A stretch of DNA of 64,000 bases from Heptranchias perlo. Its lineage: Eukaryota. The position numbers were made by a program, and so were the translations under genes. The number at the start of each line of letters is the position of its first letter. The first letter of the stretch is position 1. The stretch lies in the NCBI RefSeq assembly GCF_035084215.1, contig NC_090333.1:27466001-27530000 (forward strand), read 5' to 3'. The notes below the pieces were generated by a model. That model made no database searches and was not told the DNA's origin. It saw only the letters and a list, made by a program, of their open reading frames with translations. This document shows positions 19,580 to 42,500 of the stretch, piece after piece.

Positions 19580-19716
19580 CCGGTTTTTTAATTCTTGTAT
19601 CTTATCCGGTTTTTTAATTCTTGTATCTTATCCGGTTTTTTAATTCTTGTATCTTATCCGGTTTTTTAATTCTTGTATCTTATCCGGTTTTTTAATTCTT
19701 GTATCTTATCCGGTTT
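19580..19716. repeat. Perfect 26-bp minisatellite, 5.3 copies
   Basis: Unit CCGGTTTTTTAATTCTTGTATCTTAT starts at 19580, 19606, 19632, 19658 and 19684, with a partial copy at 19710. Confidence 0.97.
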
Positions 19717-23089: not shown

Positions 23090-25821
23090 GTAAGTATAGT
23101 ACTTTAATTATTTTCCTCCTCCCTTATGTAATCTCTGTAATACTACAGAGCTCCTCCATTCAAGAGTACAGGCAGGAGATGTGCTGCCAACCCCATTCTA
23201 TCATGAGCCATTAGGTGAAGCACCCAAGAGTGGCAAGGAGTGAAAAGCTCTCTTGATTTTTTTCCTCCCTTCCACTGAAAAAAACACCACCCCTTTGCTT
23301 AGTGACTCACCACGGTGGCAGAGTTAGGAATTGTGCATATGGACTGATGTCCTATTATGGACCTCGAGAATGTATTCAACACCCTTTGTTTAATGTGTTT
23401 TTAAAGGGAAGGAATATTTAGGGGGAGTAATTTTTGTTCAAGATATTCCGTCTAATTTTCATTCTTATTAAAGAATTTTTTTTCTCTGTCCTGTGTGGTT
23501 GAATAATTTTTCTGAGTGTCTTTTTTTATATGTTTCTATAGTGATTGGATGTTGCAATTGGAACAGTTGCCAAACTTATTATTCATTCACAAGTCCTGCA
23601 ATTTGTGGATTTTTGTCCCCTTTTAAAATATTTTATTCTATATAAATTTACATGATCTTAGGACATAGCTCCTATTGTTTATGGACTTTTTAATGCTTCT
23701 GATTTCAAATGGGAAATCGTAAAATGTAGAAAACTATATTTAAATTTCCCACAAACATTAAAACAATCTGCAAATTGCTGGATTCTTAAGTGAATCATAA
23801 TGTTGGTGTGAACCAATCCAATCATTCAATTACACCACCAGATAATGAGTTCTCTTAACATCCAATCTGTAATCTCCTGCATATGTGCTCATCTTTACAA
23901 AGTACCATGCAGTTGGCATTGACAGTTTGCCATTTTTATTGCTTTGATAGATTAGGCAACTTGCGTGACAAGCTCATCCGTCAGGGCCTGAAGGATGTAC
24001 GCTATATGATCGTGAATGAGAAAACACCTCAATCCAGGGCTATGATCTGGGAACTCAAACGGCATGCTCCCAAGGATGTTGCTGTCTACCAGCAATCGCC
24101 ATTTCAACCTGATGTCTGGCGCATCCTGCAGGGTAACAAGGATGACTTCCTCATCTACGATAGGTTGGTCGCTTTGAGAGGTTAATTTTACACAAAAAAA
24201 GTTAAAGTTTAAATTGTAGCACTGAGTGGCATATTTGTTGCTAGTAAACAAATTCCTTCCCCTTCAATTATTTGTGTACAATCGTGGTTAGGACCACTGG
24301 GAAAGTTGGAATAAGGAAGGATTTGCACCAGCACTCTCTGTAATTGTGCTAACAAAATGGCAGAATCTTTCTGCTTTTATTATTGAAATATTTAACAAAA
24401 TAAGCAAAGTTTATTTTTGCCCCAACTTTCTCTCCTTGTAACGTGAAGATGGTGCCTCATGCTGGGATATGGTTACATGGTGGTACTGGCCCTTTGCTAT
24501 TTCACCCAAGCAGTCATGTGTGAGCATGTTTGCCATTATTGCCAAACCTGATCTGGTCCTCGTTGATGTGCATGCATGTACATGCTTTCTAGCAGGAATC
24601 ACTGCATAGCAATCAGCAATAAGAATCCCGGTTGATACTATATATTTTTGCCCTTCTGTATTCCTGAGACACTGAGGCTAATTGTAGTCATCTCCATCTG
24701 AGATTAACGAAATGAATAGGCCAGGTGAAAAACTTGGAATCTTCCTGGTTTCAGTACTACACACTGATTTATTCATCCACTGGGGAGTTAGCCAAATGTA
24801 ATTTTTGTGGCTAAAATGAGGTTAGCTGGTTCAGTCAATGCTCCTAGAAATGTGTTTGAACAGTGTGGGGAGTTACATATCCCTTCGCAACCAATTCAGC
24901 CAAAATTAGAGAAATTTACCATTTCGGAGAGATTTGAATGTAAAATCTTTTAAAAAAATCTGGTCTCCTTGTTGGGAACTGAGGGATCAAACTTTAAGAC
25001 AGGCTAAACATTATTGATTTGCTTATTGAATTTGGATTAATGAACTAAACGAGTATATACTCACTATTATATCTTTAACATTGAGTAGTTGTCTTCTAAA
25101 GGCATCTGCACTATGATTTACAAGAAATGGGATTGTTTACAATGGCGACTAACATTTCACTTCAAGGTATTTAATCCCATTCTTGTGATGTTTTCTCTTG
25201 TTTCTTTCCTAGATGTGGTAAATTGACCTTTCATATCGTATTACCATATAGCTACCTCCATTTTCGCTATATTGAAGCAGCAATCCAAGCTACATATAAC
25301 AAGGATATATGCGGGAACTGTAGTGTCAGCGACATTAGTCTGGAGGTAATTGTTAGCATTAATTGACAATCTCAATCTCAGAAAGACAGCAATGATGGCT
25401 GGTAAACATAAAGGTTGTTCTAGTGCAAAAATACAGTGTTTATGGCATCATTATACCTCTTAAATTGTGTCATGATGCAATCTGCAAGCAAATAGACGTG
25501 ATTAAGATAGTCATGTCTGATTTACTGTAGTTCATAGGAGACTGATCACTAATCCATTTCTTGCAGACAGAGAGAAACATTACCACCACCTACAAGGCAA
25601 ACTTTACTGAATCTAACACCACAAGTCTGGCGACAAGTCAGGCTTTTGAAAATAAAGCAATTAAGCTGGCGCAGCATGTGTATAGTAAACCTCATCCTGA
25701 CCACAATGAACAAGGAAACCTGGACAGCTTGGCTGCAAATGCTAGCCATCAGCATCATTTCAATAACAACCAAGATGGAAATCTGGAGAATGAGGATGCT
25801 CAGAGATCAGAGCAGGTATAG
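22884..25821 (+). CDS. SELENOP2: Selenoprotein P2 (SelPb), 268 aa, single Sec; join(22884-23089,23951-24163,25213-25345,25567-25821)
   Basis: Signal peptide MMGLEMSLLTILLGLTITMAVA, then RICQVAPHW...GQVVVVALLKAS-U-QFC (TGA at 23061-23063), KDDFLIYDRCGKLTFHIVLPYSYL and CGNC, all SelP N-terminal domain motifs. GT-AG introns in phases 2/2/0; SECIS downstream; no Sec-rich C-tail. Confidence 0.93.
23951..24163 (+). CDS. SELENOP2: SELENOP2 coding exon 2
   Basis: GATAG| LGNLRDKL...KDDFLIYD AG|GTTGGT; 213 nt, phase-compatible. Confidence 0.93.
25213..25345 (+). CDS. SELENOP2: SELENOP2 coding exon 3
   Basis: TTTCCTAG| CGKLTFHIVLPYSYLHFRYIEAAIQATYNKDICGNCSVSDISLE |GTAATT. Confidence 0.9.
25567..25821 (+). 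CDS. SELENOP2: SELENOP2 last coding exon (Thr/Asn/His-rich tail)
   Basis: TTTCTTGCAG| phase 0, open to TAG at 25821; N-glycan sequons NIT, NFT, NTT, NAS; His cluster HQHH. Confidence 0.8.
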   Translation, partial: TERNITTTYKANFTESNTTSLATSQAFENKAIKLAQHVYSKPHPDHNEQGNLDSLAANASHQHHFNNNQDGNLENEDAQRSEQV

Positions 25822-31981: not shown

Positions 31982-32651
31982 ATAATTCCAGCAGAAGTCA
32001 CTGGACAAAGATCTGGAACAGGAATCCTAGTCAATTTTCATCTCCTCACCCTGGTAGATCAATTAACAGCATAGCCTGGAGGTAAATGTTACCCTAGATT
32101 AGAAATTGGGTGAGGAATGTCACCTTGCCCTGGAATTAATGTAGGCGTGAGGAGAGGAGAAGCCAAACTTCCAGGCCATGAGAAACCTCTAAATACAACT
32201 ACTATGTTTAGAAGCATAAAGAAAAGGTGTTAAGCATTTAGGTTCAGTGCAACTTTGGGTCAATAAGGTTTGAGTCATACTTATTACTTATACAATAGAT
32301 TTGCACTTTAAACCACAAGAAGTCAGCACTGAAATAGACGTTTCCTTTATTGGTTTGTTTTTTTAACTACGCTTCTGGTGTTTAGAAAACAGTTCCAATA
32401 TGGGCCACACCAGATGTTCAACAGAAGACATGGATATTACTGGATAACAAAGTGAAATTTGGAGACTGGATCTTAAAAGTGTTAGAGGCAAGAACAGATG
32501 AAAACCATACTGATTATTCAGATTGTGGGAATAGTGGAATCTTGGAATAATGCTGACCTTCTTAGAATCCCATAATTTGGCATGTTAAAAACACTATGAA
32601 TACTACCAGATGCATTGGGCATATAGAACCTGAAATAGATGGAGAAAATTT

Positions 32652-33906
32652 TCACAAAGAGACAGTGTCAGGGACAGAATGGACACTTGATTTCTGGCTA
32701 TCTGAGTTTGATTCAGACAGTACTGGTGTTTCACTGTACTCATGTTTGATGGTTAAAACCTCATGCTTTGCTGGCTTTAAATCAGATAGTCTAGCTGCAA
32801 TAGAGTCTGAATACCCCTGGTTGTCTGATGAACTTAAGGAATCACTCATAGCTGGGCAAACTATGGCAGGTTGCTGTTGATCAAGTTCCACCACATACTT
32901 GTGAATATTAGCATACATTTCATCCAGAAAAAGAGAGGTTGGGAAGATTTGTTCTAGGGATTTCTCAGTATTTGAGGGAGAACTATGCAGGGAGCTGTCT
33001 TCACCTGAGGCAACGTCCACTGGTGGCTTTGGGAAAGGCTTGTTTTCAATCCGTGTACTATTACAGTCACCTGCTTCACGATTAAGCAGACTTGGTTCCT
33101 CTAGTATCTTCTTGTACCTTACTGGTAATATGTTGCGAGCTTTCCAAATCTTTCTTTTCTTGCATTCCTCATTTCCTGAGCAACACACTCTAGTTTTAAT
33201 GGATAAATCACTGTTGTTCTTAATCCAGTGTAGTAATGGATGGTACACCTGTCCCCCATATTTCACAGCATTCACCCATTCTATTATCTCTTTTTTCTGG
33301 TTTCTGGTCTTCCTCAAGTGAAACAGACAACAGGTGACAGTTGTTAATATCATACATGCTCCAAAGGTAATGAAAAAGGGACAAATCCAATCTGAAAATA
33401 AAACAGATATGTGTATTCTTGTATCTATTTATAACAGATATAAAAGATTAATTAAGATTTTGACTTATTTCTGTCTTCAATGCTGTGTAGAAATTCTTCC
33501 AAGATATTCTCGGTTACTGCCTTCAGCCTTCCTCAGGCTCTCATTGCATTAAGAAGTCTAGTTCAATCTCTCTCATTGTGCATTCCTGAAAGCTAATTTC
33601 TAACAATATCTTTTAAGATGAGCGGAAGCATCATGGGAGTATTTCTACATAACAAAAACAACAGGAATAAGGCAGAAAGCTAATACATACATATATTGAT
33701 AGCTGAAAGTAAATATTAAGGCTGTAGTTTTCTCTTAGGATTCAGTTGACATTATATACAAGAGCAAAACATTAATGTATTATGCCTAAGTAATAACAGT
33801 TATTAGTACTTTGGGACGTCACAAGGCAATATATAAATGCAAATTCTTTCTAATGTGTGATTTGAAATCCTAATGATATTACATACTTACTATTCGGCAT
33901 TATCAT
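32652..33906 (-). CDS. TEX38: TEX38-like single-pass membrane protein, 251 aa; complement(join(32652-33391,33891-33906))
   Basis: Exon 1 ATG ATA ATG CCG AAT A|GTAAGT; acceptor TTTTATTTTCAG| at 33392/33391; phase 1. N-terminus WICPFFITFGACMILTTVTCCLFHLRK...IIEWVNAVK...VYHPLLHWIKN matches, by recall, human TEX38 [27 protein letters not shown]...QQWVEVMR...TYSPLLYWINK. Minus-strand AATAAA at 32351-32346. Confidence 0.75.
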
Positions 33907-33999
33907 CTTAATTGGGTAAATATTTTCAGGGTCAAATGCTTTCTTGAGCCTCAGAGAGATGGACCTGTTGATTTTGCCCCTTCAGCTTTTGGAATGAAT

Positions 34000-34090
34000 G
34001 TGAGTGACGTCAACGATCTTTCTGTGACGTAATCAGTCTTCGTGAAACAATAAAGTCCGTTTCCTGTCTGCGCATGCGCGGGCGGGCTCA
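34000..34090. promoter_or_regulatory. Proximal promoter cluster on the TEX38-like side: CRE, CRE variant, NRF1, GC box
   Basis: TGACGTCA 34005-34012, TGACGTAA 34025-34032, TGCGCATGCGC 34069-34079, GGCGGG near 34081. Confidence 0.7.
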
Positions 34091-34454
34091 CCATTCTGGG
34101 ACTTGACATTTACCGAAAGAACCGAATAGGGACTTTAATAAAGACGCAAACCGTTTAATGCAAACTTCGTTGTGATCCTGATGAAAAGATCCGAAACCAG
34201 AAAAAAGTAATCCGTAGCTCGAAAAGAGGGATTGAAAAGCAAAACAATAGCGAATCTACGATTCTGATAAAGATGATGAACGGCCTCGTCCACCGACACC
34301 GGGCCGTTCCAGGAGATCTCGGCCCTGATTGGCCGACGGCGAGCTGCGTTGTGATTAGCCGATTGTGACCATTCCCGAACACGCAAGGATCTTGCCCAGT
34401 TTTGATTGGTTCTTTGGTAAGACCACTGATTGGCTGAGGGGTCAGCAATGAGCG

Positions 34455-34811
34455 CACTGATTGGCTGAATCTTAGCGAGGTGCGCACCGATTGGCTGAGT
34501 CTCGGCGAGGTGCTCACCGATTGGTTGAGTCTCAGCGAGGTGCGTACTGATTGGCTGAGGCTCAGCGAGGTGCTCACCGATTGGCTGAGTCTCGGCGAGG
34601 TGCTCACCGATTGGCTGAGTCTCGGCGAGGTGCTCACCGATTGGTTGAGTCTCAGCGAGGTGCTCACCGATTGGCTGAGTCTCGGCGAGGTGCTCACCGA
34701 TTGGCTGAGTCTCAGCGAGGTGAGCACTGATTGGCTGAGTCTCGGCGAGGTGCTCACCGATTGGCTGAGTCTCGGCGAGGTGCTCACCGATTGGCTGAGT
34801 CTCAGCGAGGT
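34455..34811. repeat. 30-bp tandem repeat, 12 copies, each carrying an NF-Y CCAAT box
   Basis: Consensus GATTGGCTGAGTCTCGGCGAGGTGCTCACC; ATTGG at 34460 and every 30 bp to 34790; additional ATTGG at 34429, 34405 and 34328. Confidence 0.97.
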
Positions 34812-34841
34812 TGCCGCCCCACGGATGGCAGTGGAGAGTCG
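34811..34841 (+). other. DPH2: Probable DPH2 exon 1 (3' part), containing an in-frame ATG at 34825
   Basis: Donor CG|GTGAGT at 34841/34842, just after the CCAAT array. ATG GCA GTG GAG AGT CG joins in frame to the acceptor at 39396 or 39399. Confidence 0.6.
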
Positions 34842-36569
34842 GTGAGTGAGTGGCGGTTGGGCTGTGATGGAGGCTGAAGGTGGACGGAGGCCCTTGTCGG
34901 GTTATGTGTGTGAGATACATTGAGGCCACAGGGTTTCAAGCTTCATAACCGGTGCAATAGTCCTTATAAACCATGGGGCAGCTGGTTGTACTGGGCCCGC
35001 CATGAGATTCGCACATCCTGTGAGTCCCTCCACACGCAGTATTCGGGGCTGTGTCACCCAGCTCATGTAGATTGTGGGCCAGATTGCACAGTGCCAGTGG
35101 TGCAGCGAAGAATCAACTCGATGGGAATTTAACTTTAATTTCTATTTAGTTTCTGGGGAAGAGCAGCAACGGGGAAGTCGCATTGTTTATTTATGGGTCG
35201 GCTGAATCTTAGGTCCATCTGTAGCCTTGTAATCTGTGACTGCCTTTTTAAGAAAGAAAGACATGCTTTTTTATATAGTGCCTTTCACAACCTCAGGACG
35301 ACTCAGAGCGCTTTACAGCCAATGAAGTACTTTTGAAATGTAGTCACTGTTGTAATGTTGGCAATGATGGTGGAGGAGTTTGAGTAAACCACCTTTTTGA
35401 AGAATTAACAATGCTATTGGGTTTACGTTATACCTCGGAATCATTAAATCATTGATAATGTTGTAATTTGCCCCGGGGCCTTCATTAATCCAATGCTTAC
35501 CACATTCCAAAAACTGTTCTTCCCCCATCTCATGACTTGTTAATTTTTCTTGGAATGTATTCCTTTTGAGAAAATGTTCAAGTTTTACGGCTTGGTGTCT
35601 GCCTTATCTGCACAAAAAGGCAACAGCAACAGCTTGCACTTATATAGCGCCTTTAATGTAGTAAAATATCCCAAGGCATTTCACTGTTAGCAGACAAAAT
35701 TTGATACTGAGCCACATAAGGAGATATTGGCTCAGGTGACTAAAAGCTTGATCAAAGAGGTAGGTTTTAAGGAGCGTCTTAAAAGGAGGAGAGAGAGGTG
35801 GAGGCGTCTGGATTACTAGTCCAGTAACGCAAACACTATGCTTCTATAGCCACACATGATGCAAATGCATCTGTTTTAAAGCTCTTTGTAACTGCCCTTA
35901 TGCTTTTAAGTTCCTCTCCCTGCCTTCCAGTCTGCATCTGAATCCCCTTTCTAGACATTTGATGTTCATCTTGACGTTCTCCTGGATAGCCCTGTTAAAT
36001 GTCACAGCTAACACTCTGCTATTGCTTTCACAGTGAAACTGATCAGGTGCTGTTACAGCTTCTCTTGTGATGTGAAAGCAGTCTGGTCCATAGTGAGAGT
36101 GGGTGTGGATGTGGGATATGACAGTCAGGGATCATTTTTTGTTTTAGTTCTATGTAGAAACTATTGTAGAACTAATTAACATAGTCAAAAAAAATTAGGG
36201 TTTGTCATGGAGAAACCTAACCTGCAAACGTCCACTTACTGGGACTATTTAAACTGTGTGGAGTCTACACATGCACTTTTTTTCACAAAAATTAGCTCTG
36301 CATGAAATTTCTGACCATGCTTTTAAACAGTTCTGCAGTATCTGAATCCCTCAGTTAGATTAAAGTCTTGTGTAAAGGGTTACAATCCAGTTCTAAATGA
36401 ATTGTAGGCAGCACATTTGAAATAGTTTGTGAATCTCTGATCCCTTTACTAGAGAGCACTTTAGTCTTAAAGTATGTTTAGATTGATGGTTATATTGAGC
36501 TGCATCACCTTTATTACATTGGTGGGGGAGGGAGTTGCAAAGAAATGCAGAACAATGGATTTTTTTTTA

Positions 36570-37100: not shown

Positions 37101-37576
37101 AGCTGCGCTAGGTGTTGACTTTTTTCTGGTTTTATCTCTTTCTCCTTCAAGCAATCTAGAGTTTAGCTCTATCGGTCTTAAGTCTTGGGTCTAGTTCATG
37201 TTCAAAAAGCTTCATACTTCAAAAATGTTCATGGTGCAAAAATTAGTGAATTTTTTTGAAGTCAGTCTGTTAAGTTAACCATGCTAATTGGGTCAAATAT
37301 CCCACTGACTAAATGAAAATGTTTTTTCATTCATTTGCACTCTAAGCAATTGGGAAAAGTTAGTAAACCCAACCAATTCATTTGCTTGTTTTTCCCCACC
37401 TCTAAACTACATTGCATAAACTGGTTTCAGTGGCCACCTTGGAGCATGATTTCCAACACAGCTTATGTATTAGTATAATCTAACATACACAAAGTAAATC
37501 ATACCAAGATCATTAAACTTACTCATATACTTGCCTCTATAGTGTTACAAATCTCTGTAATAACACTTCTGCAGAG

Positions 37577-37941: not shown

Positions 37942-39409
37942 CTCCAGAGATCTACCACCTTCTCAAAGAACTGTTTTAATCCTTCCTTCTACTTGCAATT
38001 CTTGATGAGTTTTGTTGCCTGTTTCTTTTTTAGTTCGTGAGGTGAGTGACACAGGCAGCATTTCCCTGGTACTAAGCCCACAAATTACCAGTTTTATTGA
38101 ATTTAATTTCATAATTTGCCATGGTGGGATTTGAACTCCGAACCTCTGGGTTCCTAGTCCGCTACCATACCCCCTTAAAAGCAAATTCAGTTGTGCATGT
38201 CTAGCCTGGGGTCAGGTTGTCTGTGCATTTGTGATCGAGCCCATTTTTTGTTTGATGTTTAATGTTATATTAATTTATGCTGTCCTCTGGTTGCTGTTTT
38301 CTTTGCTGTTTTTCTTTGGTTTTGGGCACACCGCCCCACTCCCCTCTCCCAAACTCCTTCAAATCAAGGCTGTCAATTTGGGAAGTAGCCTGATCCTTTG
38401 TGAGATATATTCACGTCTCCTGACTCCAGAAATCCAAGCAAAACCTAACACCAAGCCACATTAAGATATATTAGGGCAGATGACCAAAAGCTTGGTCCAA
38501 AAGTGGTAGGTTTTAAGGAGTGTCTTATAGGAGGCGAGGGAGGTAGAGAGTTGGAGAAGTTTTAGGGAGGGAATTCCAGATCTTAGGGCTTAGGCAGCTG
38601 TAGGCATAGCCTTCAATGGTGGAGTGATTAAAATAGGGGATGCACAAGAGGCCAGAATTGGAGGAGCGCAGAGATCTCAAAGAAACAGTAGCCATTTGTT
38701 ACACGATACAGAGACGGAGATACCTGAAATCAAAAATCCACACAAATAAATAATTGTTCCATTAATCAGAAATTGGGGTGATAGTTCAACTAATATACTC
38801 TGAAAATAGAAAAGATATGCTATAACCGTTTGTGGATGTTGGGACTGGCCTGACGCACCATTAGCAGCGAGATCAATATATTGACTATTGGCCACTGCTT
38901 TTGATTCATTGCTGTGCGTGCTGTGGCATATTCTAATTAGTTCTCCAGCAAATTTAGGCATAAATTTCCCACTAAGACAAAGGTCTAAGTTATGCCGTTT
39001 ATTGCTGCTGCACCGAATTCGAGGTCAGTCTTCTCCCATGCTGGCTCTAACAACAGTTTTAAAGCATACAAGACAAAATGGGAGACAACTGAGACATTGG
39101 TGCCAATATCTCTCTTTATAACATGGAATTAGTTGGCAATTTAGTTAAATAGATTTCCATTTTAACTAACCAACTGTCTGATATAATCTAATTGATGTTC
39201 AGTAACCAATTTGTTACTGGGGCGAAAACATGTATGGTGCTGAAAGCAAGTCTGAGTAAGTATAAAACTGCCATCAGCTACTGTCAGTCTGAAGCAATGT
39301 TTTCTATTAAGTGTGGGACCTGTTGTGTAAATTAATTAGCAATGAGAAACTTGCTGAGTGCTGTTGTCAATCCTTTTTTGCTTCTTATTGCCTTAGTAGT
39401 TGGATCGTC

Positions 39410-39562
39410 ATGACTACAACATTCAGTGATGATGGTTCTAAGGCAATTCAGCAGTCAATAGATGTTCTCGAAAGGGCCAGCAGAACCAACCCTAGGGAGA
39501 TTGATGTGGTCTATGAGATTGAGAGAACCTGCAGCTTCATCACAGATCATGGCTTCAGAAAG
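39410..39562 (+). CDS. DPH2: DPH2 coding exon (MTTTFSDD...GFRK)
   Basis: Acceptor TAGTAG at 39394-39399; donor AAG|GTTTGA. Confidence 0.9.
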
Positions 39563-42500
39563 GTTTGAATCTCTTGGATAATTGTATAAGATGCTTCCTG
39601 TCGGGCACTGTACCTAATTTCACTCCCTCTTTGTGGGGGAGGCATTTAACTCCACGACATCTCCAGCAGCAGGGACTAAGAACAGGAACTTTATTATAGG
39701 CACATATATGTATCCTATGGTCCAATGCAATGGAAGGAAGGAAAATCAGAAAGCAGTCAACCCATCCTTCAGGGGGCTGTTGGTGCACACTTTATGGTTG
39801 TTACATAGCAGGCATTTGCTGGTACCTGGGAGTAGATACTGAAAATATTTCTCAATTCCCACAGGTGGCTCTTCAGTTTCCTGATGAACTTCTCATAGAT
39901 GCTGCTGCCATTATATCAAAGCTGGAGAAAAACACCAATGTCAAGCTTTTCATATTGGGTGACACATCGTATGGCAGGTCTGATTTAAGTTGATACTCAG
40001 TACATCTTGTTTTTGAACAATAAACAGTAAGCTTAACTGGGTTTCTTCTTTTGATGGGTATATCTTGCATCGATTGTGAATGCTGCATTTATCAGGATAA
40101 AGATATTAACTTATCTATTGGAATGAAACCTTCATTGTGACTTGGATAAATGTAAATGTCTCTAAAGTACAAAATTGTCTTTTACTGAAGTAGGTAACGT
40201 ATTGGATCAGAATTGCTACAGTGGCCTAAATGTATTATGCTGCTAGTGGCTATTCTAGAAATGAGATGGTATGAACAGCTGGGTATCCTGATCTTTCACG
40301 TTTACACGGTGGTTTGAATCCAGCCCGGATTGAGTAAGATAGAAAGTGACAAGGGATACCTTCTCTTACTTAATGGTGTGCATCATAATTAAGAAAGATT
40401 GGACATTGTTGTTGTGGTTTCCCGTTGGGCTATTGCCAGCAGCTAAATATTGTAAAGAGCGTTGCAGTGTCTTTCACGCTGATGTCCCATGGAGCGATAG
40501 GATATGGGTTCTTGCCCATAGTTCTCTGTTTGTTGGATACGCAATGTCAGCTTTGTTGTTTGGGAGAAGTAGACAATAAAGGCCGGGAACATCTCAAAAA
40601 GAGTGAAGAAGAATCTAAAGGTGAGTTACCGGAGGCTTCTAACAGTCAGAATAGTGTGCCTTGAGAATATTTGAAAAGTAGAAAAGATCAAAAAGTTTGT
40701 CTTTTTAAAAAAAAATAACACATCCCTCCATGGCCAACCAGTGTTCAAAACAGGAATTGTTTTTAATGGACAGGTACTAAGACTGAGTGTTGATGGGTCA
40801 CAGAAATTGTGATTTGCACTTTCTCATTTTTATTTTAGTCTCAAATCTTTAACTCTTGGAATGTGGGCAATGCTGGCAAGGCAGTATTTATTATTCATCC
40901 GTAGTTATTTCAAGGACATTGAGTCACCCATGTAGTGTGCAACTGGAGTCACATGTTGGCTCATCCGGGAAGGGGCGGCAGGTTCTCTTCCCTGAGGACA
41001 TCAGTGAATCAGTTATGTTTTTAAAAAGCTCCAGCAGCTTTCATGGTCATTTTCTGGTACTAGCTGTCAAATCACCAGATTTATTGCCATGGTGGGATTT
41101 GAACTCTTAACCTTCTTTCAGTTATTAGTCCAATACCATAACTACTAGGCTACTGGAGCTGTAAATCATTTTTCCTCATTGTGTGCACTCGTCGATAGAT
41201 TTTTGGACCATAAGGGAATCAAGGGATATGGGGATCAGGCGGGAAAGTGGAGTTGAGGTTGAAGATCAGCCACGATCTGATTGAGAGGTGGAGCAGGCTC
41301 AGGGGGTCATATGGCCTACTCCTGCTCCTATATCTTATGTTCTCTACATAGTCACAGACATATTCTAAAATTTCCTTGAAAATCTCTTGTCTGTTGTGTA
41401 GCTGCTGTGTAGATGAAGTTGCTGCTGAACATCTTGAGGCTGACAGTATAGTACATTATGGAAGAGCATGTCTCAGTCCTTCCACAAGGCTCCCAGTGAT
41501 GTATGTGTTTGGACAAAAACCAGTGGATGTCCATCAGTGTGCTGCCTCCTTCCGAGCCCTGTATCCAGACAAGTGTACCCATGTTATAATCCTGTGTGAT
41601 GTCATCTACTTGTATGTACTTGGTAAGAAAGTTTTTTTTCCTCTTTTCCCTCTTATGTTGTGCGTTCTTTCTCCCATGCTATAAAGTTAGAAAAAGAGAC
41701 TTGTTTACAGTGAGGGCCATTCTTTTAGACTCTGTTGCATCCGCCCGATCTTTGGTAATGTCCTGAACTGGAAGTTATGAGTTGTCAGTGAAGAAATGAA
41801 TAAATGAGAACCCACTTGTAAGAATTTTTTTTTAAAATGAATGCTGTAGAAACTGAAATTGCTTTCCCAGTGATTGCTGTAAAAAGATGGAATGTACTTT
41901 TAATTTCTCCCCCCCACCACCAATTGTGGGGTGCGAGGACCAATTGGCATTTAGTTGCCAACCCCTCTGTGCTGTAAAATGAAGGTATTTTGTGTCTGAT
42001 TGCTTTAAAGGGTGCTTTAAACAACCCAGCTGGTCCTACTTCACTATAGATCAGTAGTAGTGACTGAGATGGAGAATCTAAAAAGCTGGATAGAATGTAG
42101 CTGGTTGGGAGCACTGCCTTTAAGAACATGATCCCAAAACTGCATCTCTTAAAGATATATTTTTTGGATGCATACAACATAATTTCTCCCTCTTGCTTTA
42201 TCTAACCATCCATTATGTAGCCCTCTCTAAGGCACTTGTTTGATCTTTTATTAGAAAAACTACGGCAGCTTCTTCACCCAGAGTATGAGAACCTTGTGGT
42301 TTCAGTGATTTGTTGTGACAAAAATGTAACACCTGATCCATGCAGGACTGATGGATTTCCCGGTGAAAGTGATGTTGATCATCATTCTGCCCTCGGATCC
42401 TGCAGCCATGCATACAACCAGCCAAATCATCAAGTTATTCATAAGTTTGGCCGGCACTTCACCATTAATGCCAACAGTGACTTGAAAGACTACAGTATGT

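Follow-up and report, generated by a model that had tools for sequence, protein, structure and literature searches.

A 30-bp CCAAT-box minisatellite between the apparent 5′ ends of divergent TEX38-like and DPH2 genes in Heptranchias perlo

The DNA analysed here, a 64-kb stretch of the Heptranchias perlo genome (the window, to which all positions refer unless noted), contains a minisatellite of near-identical 30-bp units with one CCAAT box each, located between a TEX38-like gene on the minus strand and DPH2 on the plus strand. The ends of assembled contigs give a weak hint that this array fills most of a gap of approximately 530 bp between two divergent 5′ ends. The minisatellite is likely a mostly redundant platform for NF-Y, descended from one amplified box of an older CpG-island promoter shared by the two genes.

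Structure and composition of the CCAAT array

Fifteen co-oriented ATTGG pentamers lie in 34328-34794, starting at 34328, 34405 and 34429 and then at each 30 bp from 34460 to 34790, which gives spacings of 77, 24 and 31 bp followed by eleven of 30 bp. The initial annotation had described about 15 CCAAT boxes, 12 of them at an exact 30-bp period, and both counts were reproduced, the latter corresponding to the 12 core units (Table 1). TRF reported the tandem part at period 30 with 12.9 copies, 89% matches and no indels, and its score of 585 was the highest among the 62 TRF rows in the window; the array is thus a minisatellite in the sense of head-to-tail units of 10-100 bp with high identity. 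The consensus RRCCAATSR on the minus strand fits all 15 boxes, while the narrower A(G/A)CCAATC(A/G)G, previously ascribed to each unit, fits 13 and fails at the two left-most. The extended consensus in 15 of 15 boxes, their placement on one strand and their spacings of 24-77 bp (limit, at least 19-24 bp) are those of an NF-Y multi-CCAAT promoter module.

Most units had been said to carry one or more CpGs; all 12 core units contain 1-3. The CpG observed/expected ratio (o/e) is 0.93 in the array vs 0.32 in the window. A CpG lies directly beside the CCAAT core in 9 of 12 boxes, the core itself having none, and the two commonest variable columns swap CpG with TpG or CpA. None of nine variant alleles fell in the 6-base core (P = 0.13), so that no constraint on the box was detected within the array. 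Over the whole window the pentamer was not enriched (216 observed vs 200.7 ± 15 expected), and the densest other 500-bp stretch had at most 6 boxes. In the 3.25-Gb genome, the array and its left flank generated one match each, counts that are lower bounds. Hairpin-driven expansion was considered and rejected, as the folding of the whole array (z = -6.7) is mostly an effect of repetition; against shuffles, two single core units gave z of 0.15 and -0.01, a two-unit piece -2.1 and the left unit -2.2. The 64-kb window generated no Rfam match.

Elsewhere in the window, a perfect 26-bp tandem repeat (19580-19716, 5.3 copies, 100% matches) occupies a CpG-richer stretch, and a selenoprotein P exon was found at 23859-24185 and nearby (Pfam SelP_N), with no SECIS element in the 64 kb at the Rfam threshold.

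Table 1. Positions of the array, its outlying boxes and the flanking gene features in the window
Feature	Position	Strand	Basis
TEX38/THEG4-like coding exon 2	32652..33391	-	Pfam THEG4; P0121; splice joint in 3 of 4 runs
TEX38/THEG4-like exon 1 (5′ limit approximate); ATG 33906; three upstream ATGs	33891..34320	-	Contigs of runs X5 and X7
CRE (34005), CRE-like (34025), ETS-like (34059-34065), NRF1 palindrome (34069-34080), GC box (34080)	34005..34085		Motif match
Older boxes 34328 and 34405 beyond the tandem array; decayed ATTAG copy at 34354	34326..34411	-	Unit table
Minisatellite of 30-bp units, 12.9 copies, each with one CCAAT box; left-most unit diverged, 31 bp	34424..34811	-	TRF; unit table; single genome match
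Twelve core units, exact 30-bp period, order A B C D B B E B F G B H	34455..34811	-	Unit table
GC box adjoining the right edge of the array	34814..34819	-	Motif match
Alternative DPH2 first coding stretch, donor 34842	34825..34841	+	NCBI isoform X1 model P0130; absent from contigs examined
DPH2 non-coding exon 1 (5′ limit approximate), donor 35020	34847..35019	+	Main contigs of runs X5 and X6
DPH2 first conserved coding exon, ATG 39410	39397..39564	+	Protein alignment; contigs

Genes flanking the array

The names TEX38-like and DPH2, given to the flanking genes in the initial annotation, were upheld by Pfam and protein matches. The minus-strand gene generated a hit on THEG4, which we take to be TEX38, at 27.3 bits, just over the cut-off of 27, and nine protein matches, eight of which carry names from sharks and rays. 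Mouse TEX38 is described as expressed predominantly in testis and required for sperm head shaping (PMC11912386). The N-terminal extensions of two TEX38-like models from other sharks did not align with the 5′ region above shuffles (110 and 25 of 200). In a related organism, B, the TEX38-like exon carries 30 extra bases at 32981, where the proteins of several sharks are approximately 10 residues longer.

Three exons of the plus-strand gene match Pfam Diphthamide_syn, its large exon is 100% identical to the NCBI-named DPH2 protein of Heptranchias perlo, and its ATG at 39410 is common to the shark and ray proteins compared. Exon 1 contains four upstream ATGs, opening frames of 18, 14, 10 and 6 codons ahead of this conserved start. 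In exon 1, one letter of the X5 contig and two of the X6 contig depart from the window (34938 and one other place), perhaps representing a second haplotype, which would raise the chance of a second allele of the array. The N-terminal extension of Stegostoma DPH2 models could be aligned to 37421-37465 in intron 1 with a score of 77, which 0 of 200 shuffles reached, and by this alignment the stretch is probably a conserved alternative 5′ exon. Protein accession numbers of the TEX38-like gene and DPH2 lie within three of each other in 7 of the 11 species that have both, and the contigs are equally long in the other four; the pairing is therefore probably old, its relative orientation being known here from this locus alone.

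Contig ends and promoter setting

Twelve sequencing runs match part of 32600-35200, eight of which were guessed to be RNA and none of which is recorded as RNA; the four runs of organism A derive from one sample of one study, and contig ends cannot show transcription starts. On the left side, 33391 is joined directly to 33891 in contigs from X5, X7 and X10 but not in the DNA run X1, and the TEX38-like contigs end at 34320 (X5) and 34304 (X7). On the DPH2 side, the main contigs of X5 and X6 cover 34847-35019 and resume at 39397. The two first exons, on opposite strands, are thus separated by 526-542 bp, and this gap contains all 15 boxes. A bidirectional promoter is defined by head-to-head genes with less than 1 kb between their starts (PMC3082894), and the first exons of the contigs agree with this definition. 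The bidirectional position proposed initially accordingly gains a weak hint from contigs that end at 34304-34320 and 34847, on either side of the boxes. The array had also been placed between the TEX38-like start and the donor of DPH2 exon 1; it lies between the 5′ ends of the contigs, but the main contigs splice from a donor at 35020 and not from the one at 34842 beside the array, which one NCBI model uses.

In the probable RNA runs, neither loose contig ends nor depth was found between the contig ends and the array, and the depth of the first bin was explained exactly by the DPH2 contigs, leaving no further cover on 34770-34846. Cover of 34485-34769 was assessed through word share alone: the probable RNA runs contained 0.52, 0.48, 0.48 and 0.48 of the sampled words, which fits the share expected from exons alone (0.53-0.54) rather than from exons plus array (0.65; s.d. 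0.03). As NCBI X1 model P0130 translates from 34825, with its donor at 34842, it requires a DPH2 start at or before 34825. That both DPH2 contigs begin at exactly 34847 may reflect a break in the assembly graph instead of a true start, and by this model transcription of DPH2 may in some cases start at the right edge of the array or inside that edge.

The CpG o/e is 0.9-1.4 across 33990-34811, and no TATA match was found in 33851-35100. Together with NRF1-, ETS-, NF-Y- and Sp1-type sites, these features are those of a CpG-rich, TATA-less bidirectional promoter. The cluster of CRE, CRE-like, ETS-like, NRF1 and GC-box motifs at 34005-34085 falls in the TEX38-like 5′ UTR of the contigs and could serve a second, more proximal TEX38-like start. 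TTYGAA, a CHR-like motif, was absent within 400 bp of the array.

CCAAT arrays elsewhere in the genome

The word CCAATC repeated four times at 30-bp period generated 3,320 genome matches. Strict boxes repeated three times at 30 bp generated 29 matches at 7 loci, and the six loci other than this one look like plain minisatellites without NRF1, CRE or ETS motifs. Strong boxes repeated three times at 22-42 bp generated 172 matches, and the 100 matches listed correspond to 19 loci with unrelated units. Two permuted control words generated 7 matches (2 loci) and 679 matches, vs 172 for the real word; most of the 679 fall in one large array, but the first three contigs contain at least 5 loci. Reversed words did not make fair controls, one being telomere-like and the other carrying a forced CpG. 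A genome-wide excess of CCAAT arrays was not supported, as one of the two permuted controls exceeded the real word.

The flanks of the 18 other strong-CCAAT arrays (among the 100 of 172 matches listed) were compared with those of 7 control arrays and 13 arbitrary places, using CpG as a proxy for promoters. The median flank CpG o/e was 0.40 for the 19 arrays including this locus, 0.53 for the control arrays and 0.34 for the arbitrary places. The idea that strong-CCAAT arrays mark promoters genome-wide was rejected, the flank CpG of the 18 others not exceeding that of the 20 controls (P = 0.53). This locus ranked first among the 19 in flank CpG o/e (0.85), a ratio that one control array and one arbitrary place also reached. 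The 18 other loci generated no Rfam match. Since these arrays have ordinary CpG flanks, the motif alone proves nothing: it is the position of the array, and not its motif content, that is evidence of function.

Several of the other arrays have features of their own. A second promoter-like case (L103:2900-3393; G000:C25, ~12,160,400) has a 31-bp CCAAT unit in 11.6 copies. On its left lie a GC box and one additional, older box; that flank is rich in CpG (o/e 0.83), and a candidate donor on the minus strand is found approximately 70 bp away. The nearest long frame resembles a LINE remnant. Another (L109:2620-3359; G000:C32) has a 28-bp CCAAT unit in 10.3 copies, with a GC box and a CCAAT box approximately 400 bp to the left; a short U2 snRNA-like stretch between them generated no Rfam match. 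Four loci (L033, L045, L048 and L057, in C7, C29, C41 and C1183) belong to a single dispersed minisatellite family, in which the 30/31-bp unit has a CCAAT-like core and arrays contain up to approximately 49 copies.

History of the array

Divergence decreases from left to right. Among the core units the first has diverged most; leftward of it lie the 31-bp unit and then single boxes with unrelated spacers. The older diverged boxes that had been noticed on this side are real features of the locus: 34328, 34405, the decayed ATTAG at 34354 and the 31-bp unit. This left-side divergence, along with the identity of 5 of the 12 core units, fits growth of the array from a small older cluster of boxes.

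The TEX38-like exon of organism B is 96% identical to that of the window. In organism B, 34310-34385 is replaced, but 34386-34416 is retained with its box and differs at 2 of 31 positions. Another contig, 60 letters long and of depth 3.8, matches 34424-34468 with 4 differences and 1 gap, and its 12 loose letters agree with the tail of a window unit at 10 of 12 (chance at one place, ~4e-5). The 60 letters equal two periods, the length that might result from a collapsed 30-bp repeat. Because organism B keeps the box region and has this two-copy-like contig, the 30-bp CCAAT unit probably predates the split from organism B, as far as these alignments can tell. There was no cover on 34770-34931 in organism B, a hole that proves nothing.

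Possible role of the array

In the reading we favour, tandem duplication of one box in an old CpG-island bidirectional promoter would have produced the 30-bp array. NF-Y would bind the boxes, the 30-bp spacing leaving room for adjacent trimers; an NF-YA domain is present in the genome. The boxes at 34405 and 34429, 87-127 bp away from the TEX38-like contig ends, would set one start, and those at 34790 and 34760, at 55 and 85 bp from the end of the DPH2 contigs, would set the other, in all from distances of approximately 55-130 bp; apart from array units, no CCAAT box lies within 120 bp of the DPH2 end. The usual position of a CCAAT box is given as -60 to -100 (PMC10491193), compared with 87-103 bp and 55-85 bp to the two contig ends here, and human double boxes at 26-30 and 36 bp, or at 31 bp, are described as NF-Y-bound promoter modules, with no pair reported less than 19 bp apart (PMC4889920, PMC4982600). 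The approximately ten inner boxes, all more than ~115 bp from either 5′ end, would be too distant for much activation and would instead mainly exclude nucleosomes from the gap and prevent transcription from initiating there. NF-Y is reported to keep the region upstream of starts nucleosome-free and to block ectopic starts (10.1101/369389), and to activate or inhibit according to position (PMC11269187). Output would level off beyond two or three units per side, extra copies mostly lengthening the gap; the geometry argues that added copies separate the two starts rather than tie them together, as the coupling of the genes proposed in the initial annotation would have it. We consider this arrangement, with both starts set by the outer boxes, an open and silent gap mainly due to the inner ten, and an output that plateaus with few units, somewhat probable. 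For the methylation sensitivity that the initial annotation also proposed, the portions of the literature searched contained nothing on blocking of NF-Y binding by methylation. A bolder version, in which a minisatellite of NF-Y sites older than the split and still turning over is the whole core of a promoter for a housekeeping and a sperm gene, its length acts as a heritable dial for the distance and independence of the starts, and cartilaginous fishes build such cores repeatedly, seems to us quite improbable.

The array might instead act as a copy-number rheostat, in line with the initial annotation, each unit adding NF-Y occupancy and raising or rebalancing one or both genes, with alleles that differ among individuals. 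The identity of 5 of 12 units is what recent turnover would give, and precedents exist in the 33-bp promoter VNTR of TRIB3, where more copies give more transcription (PMC7425993), and in the 14 CCAAT/GATA repeats of LTR12 that matter for the beta-globin locus (PMC3730095). The TRIB3 effect, however, spans 1-5 copies only (PMC7425993), that of the ABO NF-Y minisatellite depends on cell type and is under dispute, transcript levels being normal for an allele without three of the units (PMC7187371), and the distance of the inner boxes from either 5′ end also argues against such additivity, which makes this alternative rather unlikely. Still somewhat less likely is that the amplified units are neutral passengers without effect, belonging to an ordinary shark minisatellite in which the motif occurs by chance, while the promoter would work through the older single boxes together with the GC boxes and the CRE/NRF1/ETS cluster. 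CCAATC arrays at this period are common in the genome, the six other strict-box loci appear to be plain minisatellites, one permuted control word outnumbered the real one, and no constraint on the CCAAT core could be detected. Against passenger status, the array occupies most of the gap between the 5′ ends and supplies the sole boxes near the DPH2 end, organism B appears to retain the unit, and the other permuted control generated just a few matches.

We regard it as very unlikely that the array is no promoter element at all and represents a remnant of an LTR or other mobile element, a 10-codon repeat that is transcribed or coding, or an artefact of assembly. LTR12 does have tandem CCAAT repeats, but the single genome matches of the array and of its left flank are not those of a dispersed LTR family. 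Three of the listed reading frames run open through the array; a coding repeat was nevertheless rejected, as these frames generated sub-threshold Pfam hits only and the shark DPH2 and TEX38-like proteins compared have no such repeat, and the word shares argue against the array being present in the probable RNA runs. The copy number is read from the assembly alone, which leaves room for an artefact; against this, a contig of the DNA run, maybe from the source sample, covers the left flank without difference and stops approximately 34 letters beyond 34484, which is what the beginning of a true repeat would produce.

Comparison with known systems

No description of the locus was found in the literature searched, where no paper dealt with TEX38 together with DPH2 or with CCAAT promoter minisatellites in sharks, and a study of medaka bidirectional promoters (PMC11676430) and PMC7793273 offered nothing decisive for it. 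BORIS-MS2 was considered as a precedent and set aside, as it is not a CCAAT repeat (PMC4973313). The CBF/NF-Y minisatellite enhancer of ABO resembles the array in having tandem CCAAT units upstream of a gene (PMC7187371). The ABO units, however, are 43 bp long, occur in 1 or 4 copies and lie ~3.7-3.9 kb upstream of one gene, and their binding and polymorphism have been shown (PMC7187371), whereas the present units are 30 bp long, number approximately 13, lie directly between two apparent divergent 5′ ends and contain putative NF-Y sites. The 33-bp VNTR of TRIB3 is likewise a factor site of a proximal promoter duplicated at about three helical turns, but the site is of C/EBP-ATF type, varies from 1 to 5 copies and belongs to one gene with a demonstrated dose effect (PMC7425993). 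Multi-CCAAT NF-Y modules, including those of G2/M genes, share co-orientation, spacing, a TATA-less CpG-rich setting and GC boxes with the array; they are described as pairs or a few boxes with unrelated spacers (PMC4889920, PMC4982600), while here 13 near-identical whole units are present. The E3 repeats of LTR12/ERV9 have ~14 tandem CCAAT units, are bound by NF-Y and have a link to male germ cells (PMC3730095, PMC12065363), but they belong to a dispersed retroviral LTR, unlike this array and its left flank with their single genome matches.

By these results the array is a minisatellite in a head-to-head promoter, not an LTR and at most a candidate VNTR, of a kind already known from ABO, TRIB3 and LTR12, and as it stands it adds a further example of a promoter site multiplied by tandem duplication. 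With 13 units filling the gap between two apparent starts, it offers a clean natural construct for asking whether the number of NF-Y sites counts beyond two or three boxes, and equally in both directions.
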